A DNA stretch of 64,000 nucleotides from Hormiphora californensis (Eukaryota > Animalia > Ctenophora): positions 7,812,001 through 7,876,000 of the forward strand of contig CM035356.1 of the NCBI GenBank assembly GCA_020137815.1. The letters run 5' to 3'. Made by a program: the position numbers and the translations under genes. This document shows, in pieces, positions 6,653-46,340 of the stretch; the first letter of the stretch is position 1; every line of letters starts with the position of its first letter. The notes under the pieces are model-generated. The model did no database searches. It had not been told where the DNA came from and saw only the letters and a list, made by a program, of their open reading frames with translations.

Positions 6653-6821
6653 AGTGGGTATACTGACACGTGCACAACCTTGGATTAGGTCAAGCGACGA
6701 TGATCTCGAAGCATTCTCGTCATAACAAAAACTTTTAAACGCACAATTCTTTAAACACACATGTTCGTGAGACGTATGATAATAGGGGAAATGCAGATTA
6801 TTGAGACATATAGACGTAGAG

Positions 6822-6825
<4 letters not shown>

Positions 6826-7660: not shown

Positions 7661-8244
7661 ATGGTCCCCTGGTATTATTATACATATCAGACAACACCTG
7701 CATAATCATTGCTCCACTCTACTAATGATCTTGACAATTATACATGACAACAAGTGGTTTACCGTCTTTGACAACTGCACATTTCAGACAGGCTTATATG
7801 ATCAAATACACCGTATATAGATTCCCTAAGGTATTGACTCTACTACTAAGGTAGGGTCTGACTGCAGTAGTCTAGTTGGATCAATTGGACTCAAAAGTTT
7901 TGCTCTGGATACATTCTCAGAATTATACTACTCACTCACCTTCCTTTTTTATTTCAGCTGGACTATTATCCTGAACCTCCCCTCCCTTAGAAAAAAGATG
8001 AAAATGATCAGATTTTTAAAAGAAAATTGAAAACGCGACTGATATCACTTACTGAAAACTTCAAAGTGTAAACGGCACAGAACAAATAGAAAAAGGTACA
8101 ACTTCTTGGCACGGAATATTTATTGGGGAAAACAGTCGTGCCTGATAGCCGTGAAATAGCCGTAGCCTGAACCTGAGGTTCAAGTACGACTGTTTCCCCT
8201 CACTGAGTTTATATCAACCCTCTCGCCCCATGATATCCTCCCTC

Positions 8245-11200: not shown

Positions 11201-14200
11201 TCGAAACACGATTCGGTCTGGGTGGTTTACCTTAGAAAAAGTTTTTACAACTTTTTTTGAAAAAATAATTTTTAAATTTTGTATTTCTAATGACAGAAGC
11301 AATGATCATGTCATCAATAAATGTATACTATACAGTTAGAGGTGTCTTGGTATAGAATTTTGGACAAAAGTAGGATTTATGGGTCAAATATGCTCTACCC
11401 CGATATACCGGGCACTAGCCTTCCCTATTTGTCCATTCGGAGCTGTTTTGAAACAAAATCTCAAAAATGTGTCCCCTATGATGTCTAGAGGACACCTTTT
11501 ACTGCAATCTGACGACTCGAAAATTTTCGAAGAGTTTGAGTAGCGCTGCCGCAAGCGGCCGGAAATTATGCGAACGTTTGCGAATGTCTGCAATGATTCG
11601 CGATGACTTGCTATACTTTGCTATATCATGCGATTTTATGCGATTTTTTGCGAATTTGGCGGAGAGTATCCGTAATGAATTAGCATTCATTCGCATGAGA
11701 TCGCATAAGATCGCATGAGATCTCATTTAGTAGCAAAACATTGAATTCGTTCGCATTCTATCGCATTTATTAGCAAGTGGTGGCAAACAATCGCATTATG
11801 TCGCAATCGCATTTTATCGCATTTTATCGCAACTATTTGCAATCAATCGCAAACATTTGCATTGGATCGCAAACACTCGCACAATTTTAGGCCGGATGCG
11901 GCAGCTCTGCATTCATTCAAGATGTTATTCTAAGGTGATTCCCCTCTAGTTATGATGTCGTCAACATATTCTAGGGGGCACATTTTTGAATTTCAAAAAT
12001 TTTGATAAATCGGGGTGCCCGGCGGGCACCCCGATTTACCGGTCAAAATGGCTTCCCCCGAGGATCCCGGTAAATCGGGGTCCGACTGTAGGACCCCGAT
12101 TTACCGGAACCCCAACTCACAGGGCAAACCCCCCCCCCCCCCGAGCATTCGGCCGGTAAATCGGTGGTAAATCTAAAATAATGTTATTTTCTAAGGATAA
12201 ACAATTAATTATTGAGACTAATTGCATAATAATGTCATTTTCTAAAGATAATTACATACTATTGATTAATTAATAATTAACTAACCTTCATCACTACGAT
12301 CAGCTCCTTTGAGTGCCGGACGAATTTAAATATTCTGATTATCCGGAACGTTCTACAAACTCTCAGAGCCACGTATCCGTGCTGCTTATCAGTGTCAGGC
12401 GTTGATTTAGACATCAAGTCCGCTATCAGCCCAATGTAGAATGGGAGTATGGATAATAGATCCATGATGTGCATCGGAACAGATAGGAACTTTAGCATGT
12501 TTTTCCAGGAGACGAGGCGCAGGAATAGGTCCACGCTGTAACAAAATATCAAAGATTTAGTTTACCTGAACCTCGGGTTCAGGCCACGGCTAATTTTCCA
12601 CTGAGACCTGAGATCTCAGGTTTCAGCGACGGCTATTCCCTTAAATCTCAGGGAATAGCCGTCAATGAAACCTGTTTCCAGCTAATAGCTGCAGGAAGCA
12701 GGACCCAAGCTGTAACTTTACCTGAAGAAAGCTATTACGATGCTATCCAAGATCAGAAAGAAGGCGTAAAGAGGTTCTGAATCATCTGAGAAGTATATCC
12801 CAATTTCAGGGATCGTTTCGAGGACAAGGAGAGTGAGGGAGATACAGATAAAGATAATATCCACCACTGCCCAAACACATGCCCCGAATGAGTAGTGAGG
12901 GTTGTTCACAAACTCTCGTATCTGAAACAAATATATTGGGAATATATCATTCCTTTTATTAAAATCAAATGAAATAGCTGTGCAACGGAAAAAATTAATT
13001 ATTAATTATTAATTGATTAATAATTAATAAACATGCAGTGTGTTTATTGATAAACATAAACAAGTGTTTATGATCAGTACCCTTTGTTTAAGTGTTGTTG
13101 GAGCTGCAGCTACTGGTTCTTCATTCGTCCCAACAAATATCTTCTCCATTGAAATCTTAAAAAACTCCAGTTCCGTATTTACTACGTCCTGAAAATTAAA
13201 CAATTTTAGTTAAATTATGGTTAATTTATTCAGTAATGAAATATCTGAGCAGGGAAGAAAATTGAAAAATACTGGGTTTGACCGGGAATTGAACTGCAGG
13301 GACTTTTAGAGATTCATGCTCGAAGCCAGGAACCGACCGACACAAGTAAACAACCAATCAGAACTCGTTATTTAGGTCACGTGACTGGTTATCAGCCAAT
13401 CAGGGACCAGTACTTCCTGATTCGGTCGGTTCCTGCTCGAAGCCACTACCAAATATTTACTTTACTTCATTTTACCTCATCAATGTTAGTAGGTGGTTTG
13501 AACATTCCTTTTGACTGATAAAAGTAGAGGATCGCGTCAAACATGGATCTATTCCTAAAAAGAACAAAAACTAAATTGGTTGCCATGCCATGGTTGCAGC
13601 TGTTTCTTCAAGTCAATGTTGGAAGGTAGGTTGGAATATCCTAACAAGTGTACAAGCTTGTGGAACTATCATACGGTCCTATGAACTCCTAATACCCAAA
13701 TTCTACAAATGAAAACATAGAAAACCTTGAATACTAGCTCGACCCCTTTTCACCCTCGACAGGAGGGTTAGAACATAACATAACCTCACCTGTTGAAGTA
13801 GTACATGCCGAGAGTGGGATGAAAGAACTGTTCCCGCTCTGAAGAACCGAGTAGGGTCTCAGGAAAGTAGGCCAGAGTACTCTCACGAGTGATGTAAACA
13901 GAACCACAAACGTTTATATAAATTAACTTATCTTTTCTTACTTTCTACAGGAGTAATTGTTTTAAATTATTTGGAATATTATTATTTGGAATATTATTCA
14001 ATTATAATAAACTATGATAATGAATAATATTAAAAACATTAATTACTTTTTCTGTTGGTGACACCAGGTCTGTCTCCTCATCTTCAAACTCCTCCTGTTG
14101 ATCCATGTCCTCCTCAACAATCCGGGCCATTGTATTATGGTTACCATGGTTACCAAGCATCATCACCTGGTTACCTTGCATCATCATTACCTGCTGTTGC

Positions 14201-14494
14201 TGCCCATTGGAAGCCTGCAGGTACTGGCAATGTTGTAACTCATGGGCTCTGGAACTGAAGAATAAATAGAGCGATGAAAAAACGCATTCGTCATGTAAAA
14301 AATTACAGTCGCACCCCGATTTACCGGGATCCGGGGAAATGGTTTTACCCGGTAAATCGGGGTACCCGGTATATCGGGGTCAAATATATCGGTAGAATTT
14401 ATACTGCTGGTAAATCGGGGACCGGGGTCCAACTAGAACTGTACCTGGTTTGATAGGTATTATGAAGGGGAGTTTCGGTCCACCCACCTTCCAT
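8245..14494 (-). CDS. Shaker-family voltage-gated K+ channel, 10 coding exons: 14445-14494, 14047-14253, 13790-13944, 13476-13554, 13081-13188, 12722-12921, 12286-12535, 10477-10611, 8514-8671, 8245-8388
   Basis: T1 domain (LIYINVCGSVYITRESTLAYFPETLLG...YYFNRNRSMFDAILYFYQS); S3 IMDLLSILPFYI; S4 LRVCRTFRIIRIFKFVRHS; pore GCWWAVVTITTVGYGD; S6 ILALPMTIIVSKF. All junctions are phase-consistent. Confidence 0.93.
8753..10299. mobile_element. Foldback/Mutator-like non-autonomous element, 9-bp TSD ACCACTGCC
   Basis: Long inverted arms starting ggcaattttgcatttgcgggcatcgcactatagacg and rich in tatagacgcat subrepeats. TSD at 8744-8752 and 10300-10308. Confidence 0.92.
10745..12088. mobile_element. Longer member of the gaccccgattta MITE family, with nested palindromic insertions (~11430-12000 and ~11535-11920)
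   Basis: Ends ggaccccgatttaccgg / ccggtaaatcggggtccgactg. Internal sequence is shared in inverted form with 15726-16568. Confidence 0.7.
13327..13435. mobile_element. 109-bp hAT-type MITE, 8-bp TSD CTCGAAGC; partial copies at 1151-1237 and 40428-40467
   Basis: TIR caggaaccgaccga/tcggtcggttcctg flanked by identical 8-mers. Confidence 0.9.
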
Positions 14495-14989
14495 GGTCAG
14501 GTGCTATACTAGAGTTCGTTCATTTTACATGATACACCTTTGGAAATTGGGGATCGGGAACTATTGCTACTGCTAAATGAACTTAATGTAAAGGGTATCA
14601 TCGAAGACTAAAAAGTATCATGGCCGAGGACTAAAAAGTATCATAGGGCTGTTAGTAGAGTCGATAACTACATCGACCTCTCCCAATTGTTCCAGTTTTT
14701 GTCACATCAGTTTGGAGCCTCGACACGACCTCTAAACAGGTGTTACTTTTTCACAAACTGTTTTCATCTTGGTGTAATCAGCAGTTGAAATGTTGTTGAT
14801 CATAACAAAAACCTGACTAAATTTTTTCAACTTGGGGTAAAACCATGGGTGTCAAAAGTTAGCTCTAGGTCCCCTGAGTAACCATCCGGAGACTCCAAGA
14901 GATATTTCAAGCCGTTCTCCTGTAATCATTAATCCCGCTAGAGCACATATTTGAGTATGGACGTACGTGCAATTGCCTACAACCTCAAC

Positions 14990-15651
14990 TATGGTGGGAG
15001 AAATGGCTCACCCTATATTTTTTACTACTTTACAACAACAAATGTCTTTAACTTACATTATAACCTGTAAATAGATTTAAAATACACTTCAAACTAGTTT
15101 TGAAATAGAAATATAAATAGAATAGAGATGAAAATAGAATAGAAATAAAAGTAGAAATAGAATAGAAATAGAATAGAAAAAAAATAGAAATAAAATAGAA
15201 ATAAAAATAAAAATAGAATAGAAATCGAAATAGAAATTGAAATAGTTTTGAAACAGCTCGAAACCGCGTGGTAGTTTCGGCTCATGTGGCTCACCTTGGT
15301 GTAGCGCTATCGCGCAAAGATTATCAGAACTATGTACCCGCGCGCTACGTCAAGTACTCAGATTTTCTGCACAATTGTGCACAATTGTCCCCTAAGGCAA
15401 AACTGTGCGTTTCGTTAAGAAGAACAAGAGTTTTTCAATTAATAATAATAATAATACTAATGGATTAATGAAAAGACAGGCCGGAATGCAGTTTGTAACT
15501 TAAAAACCAGCCAGTTTGATTGTCTGTTACACCTTGAGTTACGAATAGAACAGTCTCGTCCACACATCCAAATTTCTGTTGCTTATTCTCACCCAGGCGA
15601 TCAATGTTTAAAACTTGCCAAGATCCCGGAATCAACCCGTGTATCTTGGGG
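14990..15651 (+). repeat. Left terminal inverted repeat (662 bp)
   Basis: Reverse complement of 29992-30653 with only a few substitutions; mirrored ORFs 15094/30349 and 15268/30175 differ at 1-2 aa. Confidence 0.97.
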
Positions 15652-15725
15652 AAAAGGAAATTGTGTTAGAGAATAAAGATACTAAAGATAAATTGATATG
15701 ATAGATCATAGATTGAGCTGTGTTA

Positions 15726-16568
15726 CAGTCGGACCCCGATTTAACGGCACCCTCGGGGGAAAGGGTTTTGTCCGTTAAATCGGGGTGTCCGTTAAATCGG
15801 GGTAGAGCATATATTTGGCCCATAAAACCCTATTTTTGTCCAAAATGCTGTACTAAAACTCCTCTAAGTGTTAAATGCAATGTCCATGTATTGATTACAT
15901 AATCATTTCTGATTAGAAAAAGAAAGTAATTTCAAAATAATTTCAAAATACGTTATAAAAATTTTCTAAGGTACCATATCAACCACGTCCGAATCGTTTA
16001 TCGAATCAGTGCATCTTATCGCACGTCTTGCTGCTAATTAGACGAACCGATACGTGATACCATGCCGAATCGGGGCACTTTAAGCGGGGTGAGGAAGAAT
16101 TTGAATTTCAAAATATATTGTTCTCTGAAAATTCATGAGGAGCACCGATCAAAGCATTGACAATCATTCTGTAAAATTTTGCAAAAAAAGTTATGAAAAT
16201 TTTTCAAAGGTATATCAACCACGTCCGAATCGTGTTTCGAATCAGTGCATTTTATCGCACGTCCTGTCGCTAATTAGACGGTTCGAAACGAACCGATACG
16301 TGATCCCCATGAGGCCAGTTTAACAAGCGTCAAAATTGCGATTCGATGGGCCTCATGGGGATCACATATCTGTTCGTTTTGAACCGTCTAATTACCGGCA
16401 AGACATGCAATAAGATGCACCGATTCGAAACACGATTCGGACGTGGTTTTTCAAAATAATTTCAAAAAAAAATTTCAAAAAAAATTTCAAAAAATTTTGG
16501 GGGAAATTTATCCTGCCGTTAAATCGGGGTGCCGCTAAATCGGGGGCCGTTAAATCGGGGTCCGACTG
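15726..16568. mobile_element. Tc1/mariner(pogo)-type non-autonomous element nested in the giant transposon
   Basis: TA|cagtcggaccccgatttaacgg...ccgttaaatcggggtccgactg|TA, same TIR as 2188-2359. Confidence 0.88.
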
Positions 16569-17365
16569 TATTAACACACATATCCATACATATTAAATCT
16601 ACCTGGTAGGAAGGTCATCATCTTGTTGTTCCCGTATTCCATTATAGATTGCACCGTTTATTCAACAAAGCGTTATGTCCTGATTCCCAAGTGATTAGTT
16701 CTCATTGTCTCGTCAAGGGAGCTGGAAAAATGTAGTACCTGTATAAAGAGGGATTGTAAACTAAAATTGTATGCTGATGAATGATGGCCCTATTAGCTAA
16801 GCTACCTAAACTAACTTCGAATTTTAGAAAATGAAATAACATGCATATTTTTAGGCCATATAGGTCATATTCATATATGAGCCAATAAATCCCATTTATA
16901 GGTTGTAATTAATAAACCAATGGTTGTTATATTTTAATCCTCTATAAAACATCCAAGTAATCAGCACTCAAGTTTACCTCTTAATCCGGATCGTCAGTAA
17001 ACCGATTAAGTTGGCATTGTACAGCTCTCCCTGAACAGTCATCATGCTATACCTCTACAGTGGAAGCTGGAGTTAGTGCTGAATTCGAAATGGGTCCAAG
17101 AGTCATTGGGAGGTGTGCAGGTACGCACGGGGAGGTGTGTGAAGGTGTGGGGAGGTACGGGGAGGTGTGGGGAGGCTTTGGGAGGTTTGGGGAGGCACGA
17201 TGAGGTGTGGACAAGAGTAGGACAAAACTTTTTGTAGAATAATTTTGAATTCATAAAAATTAGTGTATTTTAATGGTAAATGTATTTTAATGGTAAATGT
17301 ATTTTAATGGTAAGTGTATTTTAATGGTAAGTGTCAATTATGAAACAACTGTTTGTTATCAGGTT

Positions 17366-20300
17366 CTACAAAATTAATGGTGTGTCATCAGACACGCTGC
17401 CACTGCCAGCGGGTGATTCTATGATAGAGTCATCGGAGCCTAATAGGAAGCAGATTTCGCCACACTTGTGCCACTCCATGAAATTGTCCATAGCCTCTGC
17501 CGCAAAGTTGCCCGTTTTAAATTGTGCCTTATCGGAGCACCATTCCGCATCGATCATCATGTCCCCCACACCCTGGATATCAGTGATGATATAATTTCGG
17601 CTGGAGTGGACAACTGTCCAATGGACAAATGCCTCGAGTGCCAGTCCAAAACTTTGGGGAGCTTCTTCGCCGTCCACCCTCTTTCCGTCGTTTGTTATCA
17701 CCTTCCACGGCAATCCTTCATGGAATGGCTCCACTTCCACAACCTCCTTGGTATCCTCAAAGACGCCTAGCCAGCTCATGGTATATTTGAGACGTTCTGG
17801 TCTTCCGTTAGATATGAGGAGGGCCGTGAACTCGTCCACCAAAGGCCTGACCAAAGCGTCCAAATGAATTTCGAGCTCCCGCTCCTTGTCTGTGTTTGTA
17901 TCGAAAGTCTGGTGCCGTTTTATTCCATGCTCGTGATACCGTTTTATAACTACAAACTTTTGGGCCGCTTCCGAGATTACTTTTGCTTTTTTAGCTTCTC
18001 GGAAGCCCCCTGACCCCACAACCCCCTCCTCAACTACCCGCAGATATCCATCCCCTTCAAATTCCCCCTTTATCCTTGACCATTTTCTGAGTTCCAGTTT
18101 CCCCCCTGTCTCCCCATTTCCCGCTGCTATAACCTCGGAAACTGTGACCTTCCTTTTCGGCATGAGGGAATATGTGAGCTGACGAGGCCTCTTGGAGACA
18201 GAGCATGATGGTGTATCAGAGGAGGAAGATTTACCAGATGGATAAATGGATGGGGATTTACCAGAAAAAGCACTAGCCCCCGAAACGGATGATCCCGAAA
18301 AGCCTGCTCTAGATGTACCAGCTGCAGGCACAGGAACCCGTGGAGGTGCAGCACCATGTGTTGATGGACGAACAAAATTCCCCAGATTTCCACCTCGGTC
18401 AACTAACTCCTTACCTACCAGATAATAAATCTTCTTCCCTGGGAGAGTGTTTTGAGTGTGTTAATGAGTGTTTTGAAGGGGGTGGGGAGGCAAGCATAGG
18501 AAAACATCATCGAGTTCTATCTAGGCCATGATACTTTTCTTTATACGGCAGGGCGCTATGTTAAAACATAGATTTGAAATAATCTCAATGAGATTATACT
18601 TTATTCATATTTAGAGCAAAAACTAATTGAAATTAGTTCGCCAGAAAGGTGGCCCATTTTGAACTTACTCCTTCATTTCCGTCACCTTTGAGTTGAGTCT
18701 TCTAAGACATTGAGGTATCCGTAAACTTTTCCGCCTTCAACTCAAAGGTGACGGAAATGAAGGAGTAAGTTCAAAATGGGCCACCTTTCTGGCGAACTAA
18801 TTTCAATTAGTTTTTGCTCTAAATTTGTACTCTTTTTTGGTCGTTTGAGGTCATTTATGACCTCAAACAGCTAAGATAATTGTCAACTAAAGTGTTCAAA
18901 TGTAATTCAAATGTATCCTGGGTTGTAAAAAACTGATTTGACGAAATTTTCAAAATTCGACGTCATTTTGACGTCGTGACGTCACACGTGACGTCACGAC
19001 GACGTAAAAAAATTATGACAGACTATTTGGTCAATGAAGCACTAAACGTGTGAAAAGTTTTAAAGGCCATGGTAGTCAAGAACTGAAGTTATTGCACGAA
19101 ATGTGAGTTTTTTCGTGGATTTTCACATCACATTTTTGAGTTCCGACGCGTTTTAAGGTCTAAAAATTACAAGTTAGAGAAATTCGCAATATGGTATCTT
19201 AAAGTTCAGACAATTTGTCACTAACGATTTTCCATCAAATCAGGAATCAGAATACGTCTTGAGGGTGTTAGAGGCGTTTGAAGATATTTGGTCTGAGATT
19301 TTTCAATGACGTCACTTTGTGACGTCATTACGGTCGTCATAGTGAACATTTTCACTCGTAATCTTAATTAATGCATGCCCCAAACGATTTGCTAACGGAT
19401 AAAACTTGGTTCAAGCCTCTAGCTAGTATGGTTCGAGCTACAAGTGTTACACAGTGAAGCGTCTATCTATATACCTATCGCCACACTGAATTTTCTGTTT
19501 TGGGGGTGGTGTCATAACTTGCGAACGGAATGAGCTAGCCACTTCAAATTTTTACCTTCAGTAGAGGTCTATGTGAAGCTTCTTAGTACCAAATTTCAGC
19601 CTCCTGGCTCATCTGGTTCCGGAGTTAGGAGGGGTCGAAAAGTGCCAATATGGGCTAAAACTTCAAAATTGTTATATCTACGCTGTTGGCAAGCGGGCCC
19701 ACTTTTTCGGGAAAAGTTTTTGGGGGGATGGGATGGGGCCACCTTTGCGCTTGCCAGCGCAGTGATGGGTGACGATCCCCCCTACCGGATTATACTGTAA
19801 CAAACTAAAAATGTGTACTATCAGACCATTAACCAGCATGCAACACTTTTACTCACCTTTGGTCACGGCGTGCACGTCTTCGTCGTCTACAAATCTCGAG
19901 CCTTTCAACGTGTAATACAAAACTATTTCACCTTTCCCAATAGCAGTAGTCAGACTATTCACAAAAGTAACGATATCTGAAGAAAAATAGCGGAGGTGGT
20001 AGTAGAGAAAGGGAGAGATCGACGGGTTAAAAAATAAAAATGCATATTTCAATTTTTAGATAGGAAAGACGGACCAATTGACGTGCTTATTCTTTGTGGA
20101 GGCCGGGGGGTTCGATTAAGGTTTCTGTTCTATGCTATAAAAATCTAAAATTGAAGTCAACCGGCCAACCTCCTCCATTCATAATCACTATTTTATGCAC
20201 ATTTTTGTGATTATATAACCACTTTATTTTATTGGCTATTACTGAACTTACTTGTACAGTCTGCAATATACTTGTTCTCTAAACCAGTTTGCTGTAGACT

Positions 20301-20399
20301 TGCCGGGCCCTTCTGAATAACTTCTGCAGCCAGGACATTTTTCTTTGTACCGATGTCTTTCATTCTTGCCTTCACCGTAAAATTTCTGAATTTCGACAT
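17366..20399 (-). CDS. Alpha-kinase (eEF2K/MHCK family) with an N-terminal putative beta-grasp domain; exons 20252-20399, 19857-19976, 17366-18438; 446 aa
   Basis: Motifs GSGGFREAKK, VVIKRY, EVEPFHEG.PWK.ITND, EAFVHWT, ITDIQGVG.MMIDAE, GNF, Zn site HKCGEIC. Two phase-1 introns join an open frame. Confidence 0.9.
18609..18824. repeat. Perfect hairpin, 88-bp arms and 40-bp loop
   Basis: 18609-18696 is the exact reverse complement of 18737-18824. Confidence 0.95.
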
Positions 20400-20691
20400 T
20401 ATCAGAAGTCACTACGTGGAGAGGTTCTGTTATGTTATTGATTTTAGAATGACCACACTGCAGACCAGCATTTGGAAACGATAGTCGGTAACATATTTAT
20501 GACGCAAAACTGCGAACAGTGAACAGTGAACTGTCAACCATCATCGAATTTCGAAGCTGTACAAAACAAAACCGGTAAAATACAAATAAGTGTTTAAATT
20601 CTAGAATGAGGCAACTTGTTATTCAATGTCTGAAACAAACTCTCTCCCACCACCGCGAGAACTACCAAACCAACTAAATTCTAGAAAGTGT

Positions 20692-21747
20692 TCATCGCCC
20701 GGTTCGAAATAATCTCCTTAGCCTTTTGTACTCTTCTCCAAGGCAGCTTGCTTTCACTGGACTCTGAAAAATACGTCGAATTAATAGCATTAGTTTGGGG
20801 AAGGAAAGGACAGTTTGTAGCAGGGGAGGGATCGAGTTTGACAAAAATTTAGTAGATAAATTATAAAAGCCAAAAGGGTCAATGGTAGTTCTATTTTGAA
20901 TGGACTGTAATAATCACCAGACCTTCTCTCCCACCCCTATAAAATGAAGAAGCTTCCTTTTGCTTCTCCACTAATTTTCTAATTTTTTGACCTAAATTGA
21001 ACTTATTAAGTTCGCAGTAACCTATCCCGAGCTATCATGTACCATTGGTTGATTGTCTCTGAGAAGACGTTCGATCTCTGGCGTGATTGTCCACTCGTCA
21101 GGATCACTAATGTCAAGGTCATCCACTCCATTCAAAAGGCTATCGATCATTTCTTCTGTCACATCTATTCTTCGATCCTAAAGGAAGGTGCGTGTAATGT
21201 GTATACTGTATAATATACATTGTATATAATAGTGCTCTTGATAGCAAAATGATAAATGATAAAATAAAATTGGAGGACTTATTTCATGTTTGATGTAGGG
21301 TAAGCTGGGGCACTTTGGCCCACCGGGGAAAGTGGCCCATGTATGGGGAAAATTGGCCCTAAGAATAACGTGTGGTCACGTTACTTTTTCTCCAGCGGAG
21401 ACTTGCTCGTTCTGTTCCGGATTTTTGCTTAAAAACCGCTGTAATTTCTGTTTGAGTTGGCCTATTTTAATTTTGCAAAAACTAATACAGTCGGACCCCG
21501 ATTTAGGGACACCCTCAGGGTGTTAGTTAGGTTTTTTATCCTTATCTAAAACCTGGTATAAAAATTTGTAAAAAAACTCAATGTTAAGTTAATTAAATTT
21601 TCAAATTAGTCAAATTGGGGCAAATATGGTCCACTCTCTGGGGCAAAGTCTTTCACCCTGGGGTAAAGTGGTCCACCTCTAGGACCAATGAAATGGAGCT
21701 TGCAATACCATGTGATACCACGTGACATTGGAATGCACTGTGTGTGT

Positions 21748-21806
<59 letters not shown>

Positions 21807-24330
21807 GGGGGGCCACTTTGCCCCCACTATCGGTGTTCTAACAACATCAGTCACGTGATAAAATTGAGCAATGCTATTGGCTTGGACCACTTTGCCGCAG
21901 TGCAAATTTTCCAAAAAAAGCCTCACCAAATTAATTGAATTGATTGAAAATTTAGCTCGGCTGAAAGGAAAACGTCCTGCTGTATAAATTGCGTATTTTA
22001 GAACCTAAAACGTTAAAAATGGGCCACTTTTGCCCCATATATATATTATTATTATTTGTTTACCTCATATGGATCAGGTGGATGATGGTAGAGGTTAAAC
22101 GGTTTTCCTGGTGGAAGACAAGTGTCTTTTTGACTTCTTATCCTGAAAGATGACAATCTAGAATGTTGGGCTTGAGGCGGTCAAGGACTGACCGGGCGGG
22201 TACCGGACAGAAACTCGAACGGACGATAACTCGAACTCGAAAATTTCGGACTACTCACTTTTGAAAATCTCTAATTTAGGTGAGTTATAGTCCGGATCTG
22301 GTGACTTTCTGTCCGCCCCACTATTTATGGTGAGTATAGACTATAGAGTTCAGATGGACATTAAATCACCTCTCATGGGAACTCGAGAATTCGGCCGATA
22401 GGCCGGATACGAGAGTTCACTGGTTTATATTCGTCTTAGTAGTTGTTGTTTGGGTTCGATGTTGTTGGGTTCGATGTTAGGGTTGTATTAGGGTTGGGTT
22501 TTACGGTAAAATCCAGGTGAGTTTTAAATTCGACATTTTGTCCTAGCAAAAAGTCGGAAAAAAATGCGGACAGAAAGTCACCAGGTGCTGTCCAGGTGAG
22601 TTACAGTCCTATCGCCGACCGGGCCGAGATCTCAATTGTGACCTGAGCCGGTTCGGTATTTCTATGAAACATCGTGAAGTGGACTTATAGTCAAAGTATC
22701 TAACCAGATGCACGTATTATGAGTATGGCCGAAGTACACTTACCTATGTAAGTTCCATATGCTCTTGAATGAGTCCAACGCCTCCTGCACTGGTGGGATG
22801 AATATCTTAGCCAATAACTCTCTGTCTTCAATACAGTCTGAATCATAATATCCTGTCTCCGTTAACTCCACAAGCTGATACTTAAAAACGCCTGAAAATA
22901 AATATTGTGCTACAGGTGATCACCCTCATATTGTCAATCAGTCACCTCCAAGTCTCGTATCATTACTATTGGTATTACTGTGTCAGTTTAGAAGAAAATC
23001 GAGTGCGTATGCTCGAATAGTTACATGACCGCAAACAACGATGATTACCTTCGACGTCCTTGATCACCTCTCGCCAGAGACCTTCGATCTTATTAGAAGT
23101 TGATGGCCCATACAGAACTGCAGTCGTGAAGTTGCCAGTAGCCTCGTTCATAAGGTAATTCTGAGACAAATCAAAAGATTTACAACGCTGCAAGCAATTC
23201 CATTCACATAACTTGGGCAGCGTTCAGAGAAAAATTAGGGCCCTATTATAGGAAACAATGCAGTGGGCCAAAAACGAAGTTTTTTTACCTGTATCAAACA
23301 CATTTCGTCCGTTTCTGTACCCCGATCTACACGAAGGTGTTCCGGGATACAACCGTGTTCGCAAACGAGGTTAAGGTAGTACCATCCAATTACGGACTTC
23401 CTTTTGTTACTGGGCATCACCTTCATTTCAAGAATCATCCTCGAAAACGTATCAAGGGTTCTGAAAATAGTCTGTGTAAGTTTTCAATGTACAACAGGTA
23501 CTGTTAAGTTTCATCCTAGGGGCGGGGGGCTAATTTATGAATGGTTTCTAGACGAACTTTAGATGCTCAGCGTAGAGGAGTGCATTGTCAGGTAGGTATC
23601 AGGCATGTGTACAGTATTGCAAAAGTAGGCAGTAATATCGGTATTAAAAAGTGATTTAAAAAAACTTACCCATAGATGTGAATATCGTAAGCCGCCCCAA
23701 ACAGGCCGGACAGCTTGTCGTGGCCATCACAACTCCAACAGAAATTGGGTCCAGGCGAGGCAAAAACTCCTTTCTTCATCCTCTTCTTGCCAGGAGTTCT
23801 TTCATGGACCCCAACAGGGTCAAGCAACGCAACCCCTTTCCGGACTTCATGTAGGGGAACACGTACGTCGTGCTTGAGTCGAAGACGTAAGCTCATCATT
23901 CGGTACCCTGTCCTGTTCGGGGCATCTCCTGAAGTACCCTCCATCGCCTCCTCTAATGCTGGCACTATTTTTACTCTATCTTCCTCTCTCCACTTTTTTA
24001 GATCCCAATGTTTCAGCATTCTGACAATATGAAGTGGATATTAGTAAGAGACACGAGCTTAAAAACATGGACCGCCACCCATTTTCTTGATTTTGTTTTC
24101 TCCTATTTTTGATTTAAATAACGACTAATACGCTAATTTGATGTTTGATATGTTTCACAGTGCAATATTCTGCCGTATTTGGTTGGGTACCTTTTTGTCG
24201 TAGCCATTGACCAGGGATAATCGGGAAACATTTTCCTACCCTCTGAAACGATTTCTTGTCTTGTCAGTCCTCGCTCTCCATACCATTTGTCCAGTTGAAG
24301 CCTGAGTGTCTCGTTGTTCTTCCACGACAT
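20692..24330 (-). CDS. DDE integrase/transposase (IS3/IS481-like core, N-terminal HTH region), 8 exons: 24191-24330, 23670-24020, 23289-23460, 23049-23160, 22744-22891, 22064-22142, 21043-21177, 20692-20763; 402 aa
   Basis: GPNFCWSCDGHDKL (D1), YGTLDTFSR, PEHLRVDRGTET (D2), GPSTSNKIEGLWRE (E), WNLHRIRSQ. Exon lengths sum to 1209 nt with no stop or frameshift. Confidence 0.92.
21740..21803. repeat. (TG)n microsatellite within an intronic repeat
   Basis: Direct reading. Confidence 0.95.
22198..22616. mobile_element. Non-autonomous DNA element with 8-bp TSD GACCGGGC (Merlin-like GG..CC termini) in an integrase intron
   Basis: gaccgggc|gggtaccggacagaaactc ... gagttacagtcctatcgcc|gaccgggc; imperfect TIRs. 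Confidence 0.65.
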
Positions 24331-24580
24331 AGGGGAGAACTAAAGAAATCTTGGAATGTAATCTCTCTATGCTAATCTGATCTAAATTTTTGAAATCTGT
24401 CAAGCACCCGTCCTTGTTCCTGGGGTATTAGTGGGTGATGGTAAACATTCGTAAACATTCGTAAATAAATTTAGTATTGTACACAAAGCTTTAGCTCAAA
24501 AGGAGCCAACACTCAGATGACATGGAAAGTCAGCAGGTTATATGTATCAGCCAAATTACAATGAAAAGCAAAACACATTT

Positions 24581-24900
24581 CTATGATTCGCCCATCTCTT
24601 TAAACACACTGGGGTCATTTCTCCAATCAATCAAGGAGTTACTGTGCTCCACCCGGTAGCCGCAGACAGGTGGCTGGTCGGGAATGGTGGTTAAGTAGGA
24701 CCCAGGGGACTGTTTCAACTCGAGCAGTGATGTTGCCTCTCTCACTGCACGGAGTAGGGAATTCCACAACTGTGCTCCTCTAACACCGAATGATGAGTCA
24801 TAAGGGCCAGATATGGATTTTTGAGCGAGGTAATTGTAACGGGGGACCAATGCTCTGGTACCAAGACTGGTGTGCTCAGTAAACAGGAGACCCGTGCCGT
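24581..24900 (-). mobile_element. 5'-truncated LINE (CR1/L2-like) ORF2 C-terminal fragment
   Basis: YDSSFGVRGAQLWNSL...YLTTIPDQPPVCGY...NSLIDW resembles CR1/L2-clade ORF2 tails. Confidence 0.7.
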
Positions 24901-26020
24901 TGGTATAGATGGTGCCACCACCATAATGATGGTGTTGTAGTCGGTTAGGTTTAGTAGGTCTCATCCTTGATATTGAGAGTGTAGGTTGTAAACAGCAAAA
25001 ACAAGATGAATTCAACGTTTCGGATTTAATATCCTTTATCAAGAAATTGGATTCAGCAGCTGCAAAAAAGAGAAACCCATGTAAAGTCGGATTTTTTGAA
25101 TTTGTCACCCCTGGGTGGCGCGCAAGTGTTATTTGTTTTTGCTTGTTTTTGCTCTCATGCCTTTTATGTTTCTTAACCAATTTCGTCGATCAAAAGTTTT
25201 ACGGACTCACAAAATTATGCTCTTTCCGGTGATATATGCAGTTTATACTGTAAAATGAGAGCAAAAGGGGGTGACAACTTCAAAAAATCCTACTTTAGGA
25301 TCAATCGCGTTGAGTCTAATACGTATAGGGTTCGATAATTTGTCTCTGGTGTAAAAAGGAACACTTTTCTGAAATTTACGGGCGCCGTACGATCTGGGTG
25401 TTTGGAGGCCTGTTTACAAGTGCGTGCTGCCAAAAAAGTTGATTCACTAAAATTGCTATAACCGCCAAACCACTCAACCGTTTTGGCTAATTCAAAGTTT
25501 ATATGGTAGGAATCTAAAGGCCTAACCCCAACCCTAACCCCAACCCTAACCCTACTTAGTTAGCCTTAACCCTAAAAACCATTTGTCAGCACTCCCAAAA
25601 CACCCAGATTTTAACGCTGTCCCTTGAAGTGGGTGTTTTGAGAGTGTCAGCCAAAACGGTTGAGTGGTTTGGCGGTTATAGCTATTTTAGTGAATCAACT
25701 TTTTTGGCAGCACGCACCTGTAAACAGACCTCTTGGCAAACGTTGCTGGCCACACAGCGCGGGATAAGGCAGCGCTTTTCAAACAGACCTCCAAACACCC
25801 AGATTTCGCAAAATTTGGAAGCAAAAAAACTTCAAATTTGTATTTTTCGAGAAAGTGATGCGCGCTCAGAATGCGGCGCTTTGATCAGAAAATTTCGCCG
25901 CTTACATCTGAAATACAAAAGACGCAGCGCAGAATTTGATAAAAACTTGAGCTGATTTTTTGTAATGATTTTTTGTTATGATTTTTTCAAGGTAAAAAGT
26001 TGGATTTTTTGTTGGCATTT

Positions 26021-26315
26021 AGGGATCCCTAAAAAAGTTCAGTACTTACACAGCGTTTACACAGTCTTTACACAGTCGTTACACCCAGAGCGCCCGCGCC
26101 GCTCTGGGTGTAATGACTGCGTCTTTCGCACTCGATTTTGCAGCGTTTTCGGAAACTTTTTTCACCGCAGCGCTCAATTTACTCAATTGTGCAGCACACA
26201 ATCCAATATTTTCTTAGAAAAAGCCGCAAAACGCAGCACGCGCCGCTCTGGGTGTAACGACTGAGTAAAGACTGTGTAAACGCTGTGTAAATACTGAACT
26301 TTTTTAGGGATCCCT
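26021..26315. mobile_element. Palindromic MITE
   Basis: agggatccctaaaaaagttcagta...tactgaacttttttagggatccct with long inverted arms. Confidence 0.8.
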
Positions 26316-26535
26316 GCAGACCCCAAATGCATGCGTTTTCCACGGCTTTGGGGGCTACAGCTTAGGGCTGTTTAGTTTACTCAAATTGGCCATGTGGTTG
26401 CGTGGCTATAGCCAGATAACAATCGCGCCCTTTTTTTAAGTCGGACTCCCGAGACCTTCCCGACATTCCCAGGACAGAATGAGTTCTTTATCTTATCTTA
26501 TTATTGATTTTTACTTGTTGTAGGAAATTTAAATC

Positions 26536-26786
26536 ATGAAGACTGTGCAGTTTACAAGAGTTACTGTCAAAGATTGGAACTACAAAAGAGCAGGTAAGTC
26601 CCACTTCAGCTCAGTTTAGGGTTTAGAGTGTATTTAAACAGCTGTCTACTGCAGGGCTGTCTCCAGCCCGATATTTCTGGGGGGTGCAGTGGCGAAGTCC
26701 GTAAATTTTATAACTAAATTATGCAAATTTTAGGGTTTTTAATCATTTGTGACGTCTACTTTCTAGACTTATGAATGCTACAAAAT

Positions 26787-26865
<79 letters not shown>

Positions 26866-29800
26866 TCTCTAGTCGATTACAACCGAAATTTGCTTTCCAC
26901 CAAGAAAAAACTAAAAAAATTAAAATTCGTCCCCACGATTCTGCAAGTTGGTAAAATTAGCAAAATTTTTGTTCAATAAGTGGATATCTGAAGGCTCAAA
27001 CTGAAAGTAACAGTTGTATAAGTTGTCACGAGACGATTGATATGTGTGTTTTGTTCGAAATAACGCCCTAAAACAGACTTTTTGAAATGAATATGCCCAT
27101 ATATGGGCATAGCTCGTGCCAACGTAATTGGGCCATGGTAGAGTCAAAACTTTGTGATAAAATGTTTTAGAATGATCGTAGGAGCTCATTTAACCCGATA
27201 CCAAGTGAAATTTTTGAATTGAATTAGGAATTGAAAAAATAGCACCCCCTGCACCCCCACCTGGAGCCAGCCCTGGTCTACTGTTACTACAAGATGAAAG
27301 ATATGTCTAATTAATTAAATTATTTGGGAATTCACCCAAACTAAAGTCTAAAAAGTACAGATAATACATGCTGCATTTTTCCTGTCTCAAAAGACTCATT
27401 TATTGCTAGGCTAATTCCTCGATCTTCAGATGTTACACAGACGGTGAACTTGGGGGATGGTGCGGGGATAGCAGATCTGAAGGAGGCAGCAGCAACGCAC
27501 TTCAATGTTGCAGTAGAGGAGGTCACCCTCGCTATATCCCTATCCGGTAAATGAGGGAAAACTTTTTCGCTTATTTTTCCACCTTCCATTTATCTACCAC
27601 GTGTCTTCGCAAATTAACTAAATGCTCTACCCCCATATTCATTCTCCCAGGGAAGGAATTAAGCGAGGAGGATATGAAGCAGAAGAAGGTATGCTGTTAT
27701 GTTCACATTCGAGGATTCCACTAAAACCGGCAACCACTCCCCACTCGCTCTGTTACCCACCCGCTCATCCCTATTGCTCCTCTCAACCCCGCTTCCGGTA
27801 ATTCTTCGTCTCGCCCGCTGTACTAGCCTTCTCGACCCTCTCCCTGGAGCCCTCCATTGCTTCTCATCCTTTCCTAGTATCGCTAGTCTCTGCTACTATG
27901 CTAGTATGCAACCCCTTTCTCTGGCTCCCTTAATCTCACCTACCCGCTTCGGCGCCTAGATGAAGTCCTCACTTCCACTATCTTCAGCCATTTCACCCCA
28001 TCTCTTCGTTGGCCCACCGTTAGACGGATTCCCTCAATAATCCCCCGCCTTTGTCTTATCACACTCCCGTCTCTACTTATCTGATAGACCTCAGTTTCTT
28101 CCTCGTCGCTCCCCAGCCTAGTTTCAACCAGCACCCAGCTGTTCTCGTGCCCACTGTTTCATCTACCTAGCTAGTATCTTGGTTCAACCCCGATACGTCA
28201 CCCTCCCCTTTCTTCTGGTTATCCTGGTATCTCCGCAGAAACTGTGGATCCCCTACTAGTCCTGCTCCAGTCCCACCGTCTCACTGCTTCCTCCCCATCT
28301 ATCTCTCTATTGTGTGCATTTCTTATTTTGTGTCTGTTACGAGATTGAAGTATAGCCCCTCAGAAATCCGACTTGAAGGCGATGCCTTGTTGAATGTTGG
28401 TCAATCGAATAAAGAGTGATGCCCCTGTTTTATCCTTTGTTTTTCAGAGAACTGTCAGAGCCCAATTAACATAAATTACATTAAAAGACACTAGTACAGA
28501 GCTCCAGATCATGGAGATCTATCATTATCCTTGTTCTCCTCCCTATAAAAACACAATTCTAATTTCAATAATTCAAAGACAGTTTAGATATCTCACGCCA
28601 AAATGCACTGAGTGCAGGATACGGAAAATTCTGGTGGCCGTGGAGATTTAGTCGGGTGTCCTACTCTGTCCAGATATAATGTACTGGACGATGCCTTAGT
28701 TACCTAGCTAGCAAATGTTTTTTAACCAAATATTTCTTAATCTTAATTTATCAAACTTTTATATTCTGCAAGATTGTATTCCTTCTCTATGTTTGGAACA
28801 GCACAATGTTTTATTTCAATTGTAAATCCCCCTACCCTTGCTATCCCCCTATTCCCATCCCTCACAACAATTCACTAGTATCTCTCTTACACTTTAGCTG
28901 CAGATGAATGGTGGGAATCTTGCATGGTCAGACGATGATAATATTGGAGAGGACCCGTTTAAGTCGATATCCCGACCATCCATCACTGAACTGCTACCTG
29001 AAGAGGAGGCCGGTGATGATGAGAGTACTACAATTGTAAAGGTTTGTTTTTTAGTTCTGATTCCACAACAACATGGTTTGTTGGGTATACCTTTTACTCA
29101 ACAAACTGCATGGTGGCCCCCACCAACATGGTATTTGTGGTGCCATGGTGACCTCATTCTCGCACGCACTTAGATGTCAATGTCATCAATTTGTAGTGTA
29201 CATGTGGGGAGAAGACTTCTAAACAAAGTTACAATTATGTTATCATCGACTAGTAGGCCCGTTCGCCCTACGGGCGAATTTCGGGGAAATGGTAGCTTGA
29301 TTAGGGAACGCTGACATCATCTGCACCATCCGTTCCTAGCCTATTTCTCACTTTCTCCCTACCCATGTTGTACGCTTCCTGACAATGTCAAGGTGCGAAC
29401 ATTGTTTTAGCTGTAATGTTTTTGGTCTTCTGCTTTTGTCCTACAACTAGCGGTTGTACAGTGGACACAGTCATAAACAGACAAGTTTTCTTAATTTAGA
29501 GATCTGTTGTTTATCTGTTTATCACTAAACCACCACTCTCACTTCTCAGGTTTCGACATATTTGCAGCTGGTATGAGAGATGCACTCGATAAAGAGGTGA
29601 AACTCTTTAAGAACCTGAAAGGACTGGAGTATGATGAAAAGGAAACAGCGATGATAAAAGACGGTAAAAATTATTTATATTTATGGAAATAAACAATTGA
29701 TAAGGAAATCTTCTTTAAAAATCTGAAAAAATACTTTAAACTCCTGATAAATCCAAAAAATATGATTAAAGAAAACTTTTATATATCTTTTCAACCTTTA

Positions 29801-30042
29801 AAATCTTCTTTTTCTTCTCAGGTACTACCGTTTACTACCTTGTAGAGAAAGCTGCAATCAAGAGTACTCGATCGCGGTCACCGATCATGATGCAGAAGAT
29901 TCAACCACCACCGTCGCTGCTGCCAGTTTTGTCCACATCCAACCACCGTGTACCAATACCAGCCTCCAAACCGCCTGCTCTGTCAAAGTTGCCCCAAGAT
30001 ACACGGGTTGATTCCGGGATCTTGGCAAGTTTTAAACATTGA
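26536..30042 (+). CDS. Transposon cargo gene(s): ubiquitin-like protein (exons 26536-26593, 27430-27546, 27651-27688, ~28898-29041) plus exons 29550-29663 and 29822-30042 homologous to the alpha-kinase N-terminus
   Basis: MKTVQFTRVTVKDWNYKRADVTQTVNLGDGAGIADLKEAAATHFNVAVEEVTLAISLSGKELSEE follows a ubiquitin-like pattern. The phase mismatch between 29041 and 29550 is unresolved (missing exon, two genes, or decay). Confidence 0.55.
26652..27275. mobile_element. hAT-type non-autonomous element, 8-bp TSD GTCTACTG
   Basis: gtctactg|cagggctgtctccag...ctggagccagccctg|gtctactg. Confidence 0.9.
29250..29290 (-). mobile_element. Helitron-like 3' end
   Basis: Minus strand has hairpin ttcgcccgtagggcgaa followed after ~8 nt by CTAG|T. 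Confidence 0.55.
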
Positions 30043-30653
30043 TCGCCTGGGTGAGAATAAGCAACAGAAATTTGGATGTGTGGACGAGACTGTTCTATTC
30101 GTAACTCAAGGTGTAACAGACAATCAAACTGGCTGGTTTTTAAGTTACAAACTGCATTCCGGCCTGTCTTTTCATTAATCCATTAGTATTATTATTATTA
30201 TTAATTGAAAAACTCTTGTTCTTCTTAACGAAACGCACAGTTTTGCCTTAGGGGACAATTGTGCACAATTGTGCAGAAAATCTGAGTACTTGACGTAGCG
30301 CGCGGGTACATAGTTCTGATAATCTTCGCGCGATAGCGCTACAGCAAGGTGAGCCACATGAGCCGAAACTACCACCCGGTTTCGAGCTGTTTCAAAACTA
30401 TTTCAATTTCTATTTCGATTTCTATTCTATTTTTATTTTTATTTCTATTTTATTTCTATTTTTTTTCTATTCTATTTCTATTCTATTTCTACTTTTATTT
30501 CTATTCTATTTTCATCTCTATTCTATTTATATTTCTATTTCAAAACTAGTTTGAAGTGTATTTTAAATCTATTTACAGGTTATAATGTAAGTTAAAGACA
30601 TTTGTTGTTGTAAAGTAGTAAAAAATATAGGGTGAGCCATTTCTCCCACCACA
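29992..30653 (-). repeat. Right terminal inverted repeat (662 bp)
   Basis: Reverse complement of 14990-15651. Confidence 0.97.
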
Positions 30654-30869
30654 CTCAAGTGTAAAAACCGCGAGGGTTTCAATTTTTCTACAGTTCTCCA
30701 GTTCAGAAAGCCATGTTTGTGGTTTTTGAATAACAGAAAAATTTTACCAATAGAAGGGGAGTATTTGGGCGGGGACTGGGGAAGGGGTGGGGTGCCGGGT
30801 AGAACCGATATATTCACAACTATCATGGACCCGCCCTACTGCACTACATAAAACAGACATATGACTCAC

Positions 30870-31769
30870 GATATGAGGATAAGAGTAAAGAGGCCCGCGT
30901 TGGAGGAGACCCTCCCTATAATCCCTGAAATGGTACAAAACCGTTCCAGACCTTCACGGTTTGCCATGAAGGCGAGCACTCCTAATCCCTGGATACCTCT
31001 TTTATCCTGTGGGAAATTAGTGGTGGTGATTTTCAAAACTACGATAGACAAGTCAGCTGATACTGCAGTTTAGCACAACTTTTCTCCAATCACGATAGCA
31101 ATTTGGAAACTATTAGATACCTGAAGGACTGAGTAAGCTGAGAGAGGCATCACAAATATCCCCTTGATCAGATCAGCCACGGCCATACTTATGAAGAATA
31201 TCACCGAGACCGTTTTAGTTACTGGGATCCGGGAAAATACTGTCAGGGCGATCACATTTCCTGGAAGAAGATTGAAAGGTAGCTCTCAAGTCTGGATACA
31301 CATGTATTCATGGATAATGGTTTTTACAAAAGTGAGGCGAAGGTGAGCGATACAAAATTGATCAAGTTTGAATATAATTTATACCTATGATGGTTACAGT
31401 TGAAAGGAGAATGAATATTGCAGCAAATCCCTTTTCCAACAGGGGGATTGTCTCAATTGTCTGATTTAGTAGCTGACTGGACTTTTCCTCGTTCGGCTCT
31501 AGAATCATTTGAATTTAAAAATTATTGGAAAATTATTTCACATTCTGCTGAGAATAATCCAATTTCTAAAAACAGTCGAGTCTCAATTTTTTGAATTTCC
31601 AGATGTTCCGGTAAATGGAGGTGAAATTTCTTCTAAACTCACGCATGGTCCATTGAATGGTGACAAGGTTGCTATCGCTCCAGTCCCAGATATAACTGGT
31701 AACATCAACATCAACAGGTGTCCCCACTGTTGGGTGACTCATATTCTCAATAAACGGTGAAGCGGACAT
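30870..31769 (-). CDS. Rhodopsin-class GPCR, 5' part only (N-terminus to TM3); exons 31643-31769, 31385-31498, 31121-31260, 30870-31006
   Basis: TM1 TVTIIGNVIAL; TM2 FFISMAVADLIKGIFVMPL; TM3 FCTISGIIGRVSSNAGLFTLILIS; N-glycosylation sites NMS and NQT. No downstream exons found. Confidence 0.85.
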
Positions 31770-32009
31770 GTTCTGATATCTCTAACACTTCCTCGATTGG
31801 AGCTGTACTGCTGCTGCTCCACTGTGGTTTGTCATGATCAGATGGCCTATAATAACTGGAAATATACAGTGTCAAAAAGTTGGTCCAACATATTTCAGCT
31901 TTGGAGTGTACGAACGCAGAAAGGTAGAAAAGTTTCGGTATGCAAGAGAGCTCGGACTCGCCAGACGTATAATTATAACAACTTAGTTTCAGTCCTACCT
32001 CTCTACAGC

Positions 32010-38575: not shown

Positions 38576-38885
38576 GCGCACGGTGTCTATGTCACCAAAT
38601 ACCCTCAGTGTATCGATATTTTCTCCCATGACATTACACTGCATGAGTGGACAAACTTCAAACTACGACAATACAAACGATATGGTACTCTAAATTGGGG
38701 CCAAACACCGGTGTGGACCTTATGCACTGTAATATAGGACAGCAAGATGTAGCATTGTATTTGGAGTTTTATGTATGTGTCAAATCAACACTTCAATTCA
38801 TTCAATAACTCCTCTAATATCAGTTGAATGGACGTCCTAATGCCCCACCCATGCGGATTTTATGCATATCACCGCTTCGACATTG

Positions 38886-43836: not shown

Positions 43837-44043
43837 CAGTCAGTCAGTCAGTCAGTCAGTCAGTCAGTCAGTCAGTCAGTCAGTCAGTCAGTCAGTCAGT
43901 CAGTCAGTCAGTCAGTCAGTCAGTCAGTCAGTCAGTCAGTCAGTCAGTCAGTCAGACAGTCAGACAGTCAGTCAGGCAGTCAGTCAGTCAGTCTATCACT
44001 CAGTCAATCACTCAGTCAATCACTCAGTCAATCACTCAGTCAC
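43837..44043. repeat. (AGTC)n microsatellite grading into a 12-bp repeat
   Basis: Direct reading. Confidence 0.95.

Positions 44044-44984: not shown

Positions 44985-46340
<1,356 letters not shown>

Follow-up and report, generated by a model that had tools for sequence, protein, structure and literature searches.

The 64,000-nucleotide stretch of the Hormiphora californensis genome analyzed here (contig CM035356.1, positions 7,812,001 to 7,876,000; hereafter the window) contains an element bounded by two long terminal inverted repeats (TIRs) that carries a predicted IS3EU-type DDE integrase, an alpha-kinase, and a candidate ubiquitin-like (Ubl) gene (Table 1). A 2.2-kb central spacer separates the divergently oriented integrase and Ubl genes, with the kinase placed behind the integrase. 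Splice signals and homology, rather than RNA, underlie all of the predicted exon models. No second copy of the integrase, kinase, or Ubl gene is present within the 64-kb window.

The two TIRs are 662 bp each and differ at four positions (14991, 15267, 15299, and 15316), corresponding to 99.4% identity, with the first of these mismatches falling on the second base of the element end. Similarity between the repeats breaks off sharply at base 662, and their interiors are AT-rich, with a tract of sub-repeats in the left copy. At its left end the element has the sequence TATGGTGGGAG, and reading inward from its right end gives TGTGGTGGGAG. The resulting termini, TATGG on the left and TGTGG on the right, form a mixed TA..CA pair that deviates by one base from TA..TA. 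The hexamers flanking the element, CTCAAC and CTCAAG, agree at five of six positions, a match reached or exceeded by chance in 0.6% of 200,000 random hexamer pairs drawn from the window.

The integrase model runs from 24330 to 20692 on the minus strand and comprises eight exons, with every intron bounded by GT-AG, that together encode 402 amino acids (aa) without a stop. Its catalytic triad consists of D145, D209, and E247, the first Asp falling within the range seen in IS3EU/GingerRoot (100–300 residues from the N-terminus). The integrase-core family PF24764 (rva_4) matches exons 3 and 5 below its curated cut-off and exceeds that cut-off in two open reading frames homologous to the integrase; homologues also display weak HTH_21 and IS3-transposase matches. 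We found no HHCC motif in the model. The sole protein retrieved with exon 2 was a Pleurobrachia bachei gene model, 52% identical, which ends at the same exon boundary.

The alpha-kinase model begins 292 bp past the integrase stop on the same strand, extending from 20399 to 17366 in three exons with a stop-free frame of 438 aa. Exon 3 matches Pfam family PF02816 (E 1.4e-24), and its alignment to myosin heavy chain kinase A (MHCK-A) shows agreement at the catalytic DIQG and the C-terminal Zn-site residues. An alignment of 45 alpha-kinases including this one retains 12 invariant columns. Exon 2 matched no family in Pfam and nothing in the ESM Atlas, and a by-eye impression that the kinase N-terminus is PB1-like gained support from no tool. 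A word-index search with the kinase domain yielded 390 candidates, none of them significant, and a search of metagenome contigs with the element kinase yielded 178 stretches, none of them confirmed.

An earlier note on this DNA had proposed 662-bp inverted repeats with few differences, nearly matching flanking hexamers, a stop-free eight-exon DDE integrase, and, immediately downstream on the same strand, a stop-free three-exon alpha-kinase. Our counts and models agree with each of these, including the placement of the triad within the motifs that the note had named. Its assignment of the whole to an IS3EU-type TIR transposon is likewise supported, as IS3EU/GingerRoot type with intact-looking integrase and kinase frames.

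Kinase-integrase relatives in marine metagenomes

With kinase exon 3 as the query, a full HMMER search returned 304 matches. Among 64 proteins of 330–560 aa, 35 share a conserved N-terminal domain, and the named members, from Clytia and Paramuricea, carry the annotation myosin heavy chain kinase-like or TRPM6-like. Using an alignment of nine related kinases as query, with no integrase information in it, we obtained 212 confirmed marine metagenome loci and took the best 80 (L001–L080) for further analysis. Their host DNA is likely cnidarian, judging from the named Clytia and Paramuricea relatives. The same kinase alignment gave 123 stretches in viral contigs, none of which was confirmed.

A homologue of the element integrase is present in 51 of these 80 best loci, and in 40 of the 46 that are at least 4 kb long. 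After clustering of the 80, linkage is found in 19 of 30 sequence families, and in 17 of the 18 that have a member of at least 3.5 kb. In every one of the 51 linked loci, the integrase is encoded downstream of the kinase and on the other strand, such that the two genes converge. Across the 16 loci with the best coverage, the element integrase is 35–44% identical to its relatives. Distances between kinases vary together with those between integrases (Mantel rho 0.55, p 2e-4) in a test on 16 loci that were picked for coverage from 22, include some of one family, and are not all independent.

The ends of these loci also resemble those of the Hormiphora element. In five families, the flanks of near-identical copies part at a TATGGTGG-type motif, which shows that copies of these relatives sit at different sites. 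Of 47 loci checked, 30 have enough upstream DNA, and 25 of these carry the motif 266–465 bp upstream of the kinase, as TATGGTGG in 22 cases, TATGTTGG in two, and TGTGGTGG, the variant found at the right end of the element, in one (L065). Across all 344 kb of related loci, the motif occurs 37 times in total. Attempts on 17 loci produced an estimate of TIR length in 7, namely 220–417 bp in six and a weak 160 bp in the seventh, with AT-rich interiors as in the element.

To assess selection, five kinase pairs were compared by the ratio of nonsynonymous to synonymous substitution rates (dN/dS). This ratio is approximately 0.06–0.07 in two pairs and 0.29 in one short pair, with dS saturated in the other two; by these codon comparisons, the relatives' kinases are under purifying selection. 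The earlier note had treated the kinase as unusual cargo in an undescribed module. Because of the integrase linkage, the common end motif, and the purifying selection on the relatives' kinases, the sequence comparisons instead indicate that the kinase is a long-standing core second gene of these elements. Moreover, transposase-kinase pairing has been published for rust fungi and Tuber (PMC12730594).

These comparisons bear directly on whether an otherwise ordinary IS3EU element could have taken up the kinase and Ubl gene from its host as recent cargo. Capture would account for a kinase that has its own introns, an N-terminus unlike that of coral-type kinases, a tandem rather than convergent position, and a long branch in the tree described below, and capture of gene fragments has been documented for GingerRoot (PMC6839031). 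However, the full-length proteins most closely related to the kinase are integrase-linked, and it scores higher against their hidden Markov model (HMM). The Ubl gene, for its part, is closer to the relatives' kinase N-terminal domain than is any of 1,000 shuffles. With the fungal pairing also on record, we consider recent host capture very improbable.

Several observations nevertheless weigh against reading the locus as an IS3EU copy with a regular kinase gene. The related loci were chosen by cnidarian-type kinases rather than by the element's own kinase. Paired termini and a target-site duplication (TSD) were sought in the related loci of at least 4 kb, and no complete element was found among the 80 short contigs. 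The N-terminal 97 aa of the element kinase are unmatched to the relatives' Ubl-domain profile. In a FastTree phylogeny of 128 kinase domains, this kinase has a long branch and a marginal position in the transposon-linked clade, where it pairs with two unnamed proteins (support 0.97); the node placing it within the clade is weak (0.31), and the next node out has support of 0.96. Its preference for the transposon-type HMM is modest (112.9 vs 98.3 bits). The Puccinia alpha-kinase P0105, which may or may not be carried by a transposon, falls on the opposite side of the midpoint-rooted tree, among protist-type kinases, so that the tree does not establish a common origin for the IS3EU kinases of fungi and animals. 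Finally, in the one copy compared, the TSD and the right terminus each carry one mismatch.

Weighing these points together, we think it quite probable that the locus holds a single IS3EU/GingerRoot DNA transposon that would move with a 6-bp target duplication and in which the kinase is a regular second gene that likely serves the spread of the element.

Among the proteins recovered in these searches, cnidarian entries labeled TRPM6-like or myosin heavy chain kinase-like (P0010, P0026, and P0103) lie within the Ubl-plus-alpha-kinase family of IS3EU elements, and the P0103 cluster includes near-identical copies on several scaffolds of one assembly. Separately, a 1,035-codon frame resembling those of long interspersed nuclear elements (LINEs) adjoins the right TIR region of one kinase-integrase element (L003:4617-7721).

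A candidate ubiquitin-like gene

The structure of the N-terminal domain shared by the relatives' kinases was predicted with a predicted local distance difference test score (pLDDT) of 89.5. Ubiquitin-fold structures fill nearly all of both match lists obtained with it, with a best Foldseek E of 0.01 and, by VIA-align, a Z of 7.3 with a root-mean-square deviation of 3.4 over 78 residues, no match reaching Z ≥8. The predicted structure thus suggests that this domain has a Ubl/beta-grasp fold.

On the plus strand of the element, opposite the integrase and kinase, two alternative models describe a third gene, either as three exons encoding 94 aa or as six exons encoding 251 aa. The last exon of the longer model reaches 51 bp into the right TIR and ends there. 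Neither model terminates in GG, and the product would serve as an interaction domain and not as a modifier. Scored with two HMMs built for the Ubl domain of the relatives, the 94-aa model reaches 10.3–10.5 bits, compared with at most 6.9 for 1,000 shuffles. Against the relatives' Ubl profile, hhalign gives it a score of 23.7, compared with at most 18.7 for 100 shuffles, at a probability of 20%. Any beta-grasp protein might score similarly in these comparisons. Leads from the atlas, all below 0.9, include four named ones that are beta-grasp families (PB1, ubiquitin twice, and Rad60-SLD). The gene has no Pfam match, a search with the Ubl exon against longer proteins found no homologue among 26 candidates, and the gene was unmatched by tblastn in the 80 related loci.

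Because Pfam offers no match, the identification of this gene as a Ubl rests on weaker evidence. From the earlier note's claim of an opposite-strand Ubl gene, the open exon model stands in its 94- or 251-aa form, and the Ubl identity becomes plausible, given the profile scores, rather than secure. Fission of the usual Ubl-kinase is a possible source of such a separate gene.

The same data can be read to mean that the element is as we describe but that its third gene consists of chance open exon-like pieces or of a passive fragment. The failure of the Pfam, homologue, and tblastn searches would be expected in that case, as would atlas scores below 0.9, an hhalign probability of 20%, and two competing exon models. 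Scores above those of all 1,000 shuffles and the four beta-grasp leads argue otherwise, as does one downstream exon: the interval 29483–29675 has a diverged counterpart in a public run with another species label (X7). On balance, we regard a non-functional third gene as somewhat unlikely.

Two further observations concern this part of the element. A candidate second domain resembling the relatives' Ubl, in exons 28904–29663, was unsupported by profile comparison. Within an intron of the third gene, a hairpin at 29240–29330 lies beside a CTAG motif and has very high contig depth; we presume that it resembles a Helitron 3′ end.

Nested repeats, persistence, and genomic surroundings

Depth and sequence pieces were taken from the contigs of 4 of the 13 public runs listed for the region, where depth does not give copy number. 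Contigs of run X13, which may be an RNA run, reached only repeats and a short piece of flank and say nothing about expression. In run X5, which represents a second sample and study, 14 of the 25 bins covering the element have a summed depth above 10,000, and the cleanest coding bins lie at ∼70–200. This pattern implies that the introns and spacers are full of high-copy host repeats. Nested elements delimited by structure alone occupy about 2.7 kb (Table 1), and they interrupt none of the integrase or kinase exons. The size of the element thus owes much to nested repeats, and the earlier description of it as giant is overstated, all the more so as fungal IS3EU elements carrying a TET gene (TET+) already measure 8.3–12.9 kb (15 of about 27 fungal rows in Table S1 of PMC12730594).

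An insertion that had become fixed or domesticated long ago, with its genes held open by host selection, would also be expected to gather repeats of this kind. The 14 high-depth bins and at least 2.7 kb of nested sequence fit such an immobile relic, as do the mismatches in the TSD and terminus, the diverged pieces of integrase, kinase exon 2, and third-gene region in run X7, and a contig depth over the coding exons similar in order of magnitude to that over the right flank, to the extent that depth can be used in this way. Against it, both ends of the element are retained and its TIRs are 99.4% identical. Domesticated transposases usually lose their ends. The intact exons also argue against a relic, as do eight listed pieces from run X5, of 400–920 bp across 16569–24428 (the kinase and integrase region), which differ by only 0–2 substitutions each. 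We consider an old immobile insertion unlikely. The youth and possible autonomy proposed in the earlier note are nonetheless conjectural; TIR-to-TIR identity dates no DNA-transposon insertion, unlike LTR identity for elements with long terminal repeats (LTRs).

The right TIR bin in run X5, with a summed depth of 1,778, far exceeds the coding bins. Together with a receptor fragment to the right of the element that has no identified continuation on the left, this could indicate that the 662-bp repeats represent separate copies of one short repeat that flank the genes by chance, or that they mark the ends of different insertions which a rearrangement has joined. The depth excess is a weak sign, as depth gives no copy number, and surplus TIR copies are expected anyway from non-autonomous derivatives. 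The rarity of the hexamer match and the TATGGTGG signature and AT-rich interior shared with the TIRs of kinase-integrase relatives argue for a single element, and we find unrelated repeats or a rearranged junction extremely improbable.

Table 1. Features of the element and its boundaries, with positions in the window and the basis of each assignment
Feature	Positions	Strand	Basis
Left candidate 6-bp TSD copy, CTCAAC	14984..14989		hexamer comparison
Left TIR, 662 bp, begins TATGGTGG, AT-rich sub-repeat tract inside	14990..15651	+	repeat alignment
Nested miniature inverted-repeat transposable element (MITE): 25-bp inverted ends, TA flanks, inner inverted pair 16217-16448	15724..16570		structure; very high contig depth
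Alpha-kinase exon 3: S/P-rich linker and entire catalytic domain (G-loop, catalytic Lys, DIQG Asp, Zn ligands)	17366..18414	-	Pfam, alignment
Nested palindromic repeat in kinase intron 2	18609..18824		structure, depth profile
Alpha-kinase exon 2, part of N-terminal domain	19857..19976	-	exon model; no family match
Alpha-kinase exon 1, predicted start	20252..20399	-	exon model
IS3EU-type DDE integrase, predicted	exons 24330-24191, 24020-23670, 23460-23289, 23160-23049, 22891-22744, 22142-22064, 21177-21043, 20763-20692	-	splice/homology model
Further nested inverted-repeat elements	22298-22584, 25082-25297, 25392-25804, 26021-26315		structure, depth profile
Open frame, likely nested truncated retroelement	24581..25189	-	no Pfam match
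Predicted stand-alone Ubl gene, 94 aa, without C-terminal GG	exons 26536-26593, 27394-27546, 27651-27724	+	exon model
Three more open exon candidates, Ubl extension (251 aa) or fourth gene	28904-29075, 29550-29663, 29822-30042	+	exon model
Right TIR, 662 bp, TGTGGTGG inward	29992..30653	-	repeat alignment
Right candidate TSD copy, CTCAAG	30654..30659		hexamer comparison

The nested MITE belongs to a very abundant family with TA flanks and common ends, found both inside and outside the element (2186–2362, 10740–11415, 12023–12090, 14303–14380, and 15724–16570). The 3′ part of the open frame at 24581–25189 resembles what we take to be the end of a LINE reverse-transcriptase frame.

The element is flanked on the left by a voltage-gated potassium channel and a tyrosinase and on the right by the first part of a rhodopsin-family receptor. 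The receptor (30747–31781, minus strand) has a 7tm_1 match at 31073–31285 and appears to end after transmembrane (TM) helix 3, ∼200 bp beyond the right TIR. In a search for exons encoding TM4–7, none of 42 of the 61 hydrophobic minus-strand frames and none of 14 other sequences matched 7tm_1, and a scan for D/E-R acceptors was empty; one known receptor exon also lacks a Pfam match. The gene may be truncated or may have distant exons. The multi-exon channel gene (8217–14379, minus strand) has BTB_2 and Ion_trans matches, and a 1.6-kb foldback covers its pore exon region, with arms at 8739–9389 and 9663–10313 that are ∼90% alike and 46-bp repeats duplicating a portion of the pore-coding sequence. 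The tyrosinase domain (E 4.8e-19) lies in a single 632-codon frame (4928–6823, minus strand); a likely signal peptide and a long, charged tract of low complexity come before it.

Elsewhere in the window, two tandem gene copies with acidic tracts, ∼80% identical and 6.26 kb apart, occupy 40910–48941; their translations are presumably radial spoke head proteins. An array of ∼1.5 kb with a 16-bp unit, 95–96% identical, lies at 38743–40340, and further tandem arrays are found at 2621–3524 (29 bp) and 43788–44091. We take the plus-strand frame at 58577–59194 to resemble dCMP deaminase, and a 707-codon plus-strand open frame with a 21-bp repeat tract spans 59521–61641.

Proposed mechanism and comparison with known systems

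To our knowledge, the chemistry of IS3EU transposition has not been established. By extension from its family, the predicted integrase would bind the TATGGTGG ends through an N-terminal helical (helix-turn-helix) region, release the element by excision or copying-out, and integrate it with a 6-bp stagger. The kinase is probably kept by selection on the element as an accessory that helps transposition. As its possible target, we favor chromatin or silencing factors at the element, which we hold to be about evenly balanced against all other targets, because cleaved TRPM6/7 kinases phosphorylate histones (PMC13143021) and anti-silencing TET genes stand beside fungal IS3EU kinases. The transposase itself is a less probable target, and something else again less so.

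The usual convergent two-gene layout has probably been rearranged in the lineage of this element to yield the integrase-then-kinase tandem and a divergent Ubl gene, with host MITEs gathering in its introns and spacers. The relatives' genes start beside the TIRs and converge and those of the element do not, which suggests that the promoter logic differs. A more far-reaching proposal, which we think rather unlikely as a whole, is that animal IS3EU elements have a module of Ubl fold and alpha-kinase as their obligatory second gene, acting as a chromatin or transposase kinase. The numerous cnidarian genes labeled TRPM6/7-like or myosin heavy chain kinase-like would then be transposon genes, and the module would have split in the ctenophore lineage into a stand-alone Ubl adaptor and a kinase with a new N-terminus and tandem position, in an intact, still-mobile three-gene system. 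If this were true, the role of the kinase in transposition would become testable within such a system. Why a transposon retains a protein kinase is an open question in this poorly studied group, and the open frames and intact catalytic residues make the present copy a usable substrate for tests of the kinase's role. That cnidarian kinase-only TRPM6-like proteins belong to a family located within IS3EU elements also matters for kinome annotation.

The earlier note had further called the layout unusual, and this holds: the tandem integrase-kinase order (found in none of the 51 linked relatives), TIRs as long as 662 bp, and a candidate Ubl gene standing on its own all depart from the relatives examined. 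It is not a new kind of system, however, as the pairing is known in fungi and regular in marine-animal relatives. We found no paper stating that IS3EU elements pair with kinases in animals; Repbase Reports and subscription journals, which were outside the search, may describe it. The accessible portions of PMC10853768 and bioRxiv 2021.09.26.461848 hold nothing further on kinases. IS3EU structure and function have been described as largely unexplored (PMC11934779), multi-protein fungal Intons derive from IS3EU (PMC3520738), and kinase-only cnidarian proteins have been misannotated as TRPM6 (PMC13143021).

The closest published counterparts are the TET+ IS3EU elements of rust fungi and Tuber (Kojima 2025, PMC12730594). 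Fungal IS3EU elements have TAYGG..CCRTA ends and a 6-bp TSD, and the TET+ elements share with the present copy TAYGG-type ends, an IS3-like transposase, an alpha-kinase, and a third gene, the candidate TSD of the present copy also being of this length. In all of them, the genes for transposase and alpha-kinase have opposite orientations with a TET/JBP gene between, whereas the Hormiphora element has a tandem order, a Ubl-like third gene, an animal host, and 662-bp TIRs. IS3EU elements generally have TA..TA ends and usually a 6-bp TSD, and GingerRoot ends are for the most part TA..TA, occasionally TG..CA (PMC10045372). The present copy resembles both in its termini, its candidate 6-bp TSD, its animal host, and an integrase-like DDE transposase lacking HHCC. 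GingerRoot elements, which reach 12.9 kb and have relatives in coral, fish, and further animals, differ in having TIRs of 100–150 bp (PMC6839031). The main texts of PMC10045372 and PMC6839031 do not contain the word kinase, and that of PMC6839031 does not mention ctenophores.

The TBE transposons of the ciliate Oxytricha are likewise three-gene DNA transposons, in which purifying selection acts on a gene that has a kinase domain and an unknown function (PMC4724952). They differ in their Tc1/mariner transposase, telomere-bearing ends, and combined zinc-finger/kinase protein, and the likeness drawn here is one of description. Nearest in sequence are the marine-metagenome elements (L001–L080), which share a homologous integrase, TATGGTGG ends, AT-rich TIR interiors, and an intact kinase core. 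These elements differ in being about 4–5.5 kb long, with TIRs of about 220–420 bp and convergent genes that start beside them. Their Ubl domain is fused to the kinase N-terminus and no separate Ubl gene was detected in them, whereas the Hormiphora element, which extends the kinase-IS3EU pairing to a ctenophore, has its candidate Ubl gene apart from the kinase.

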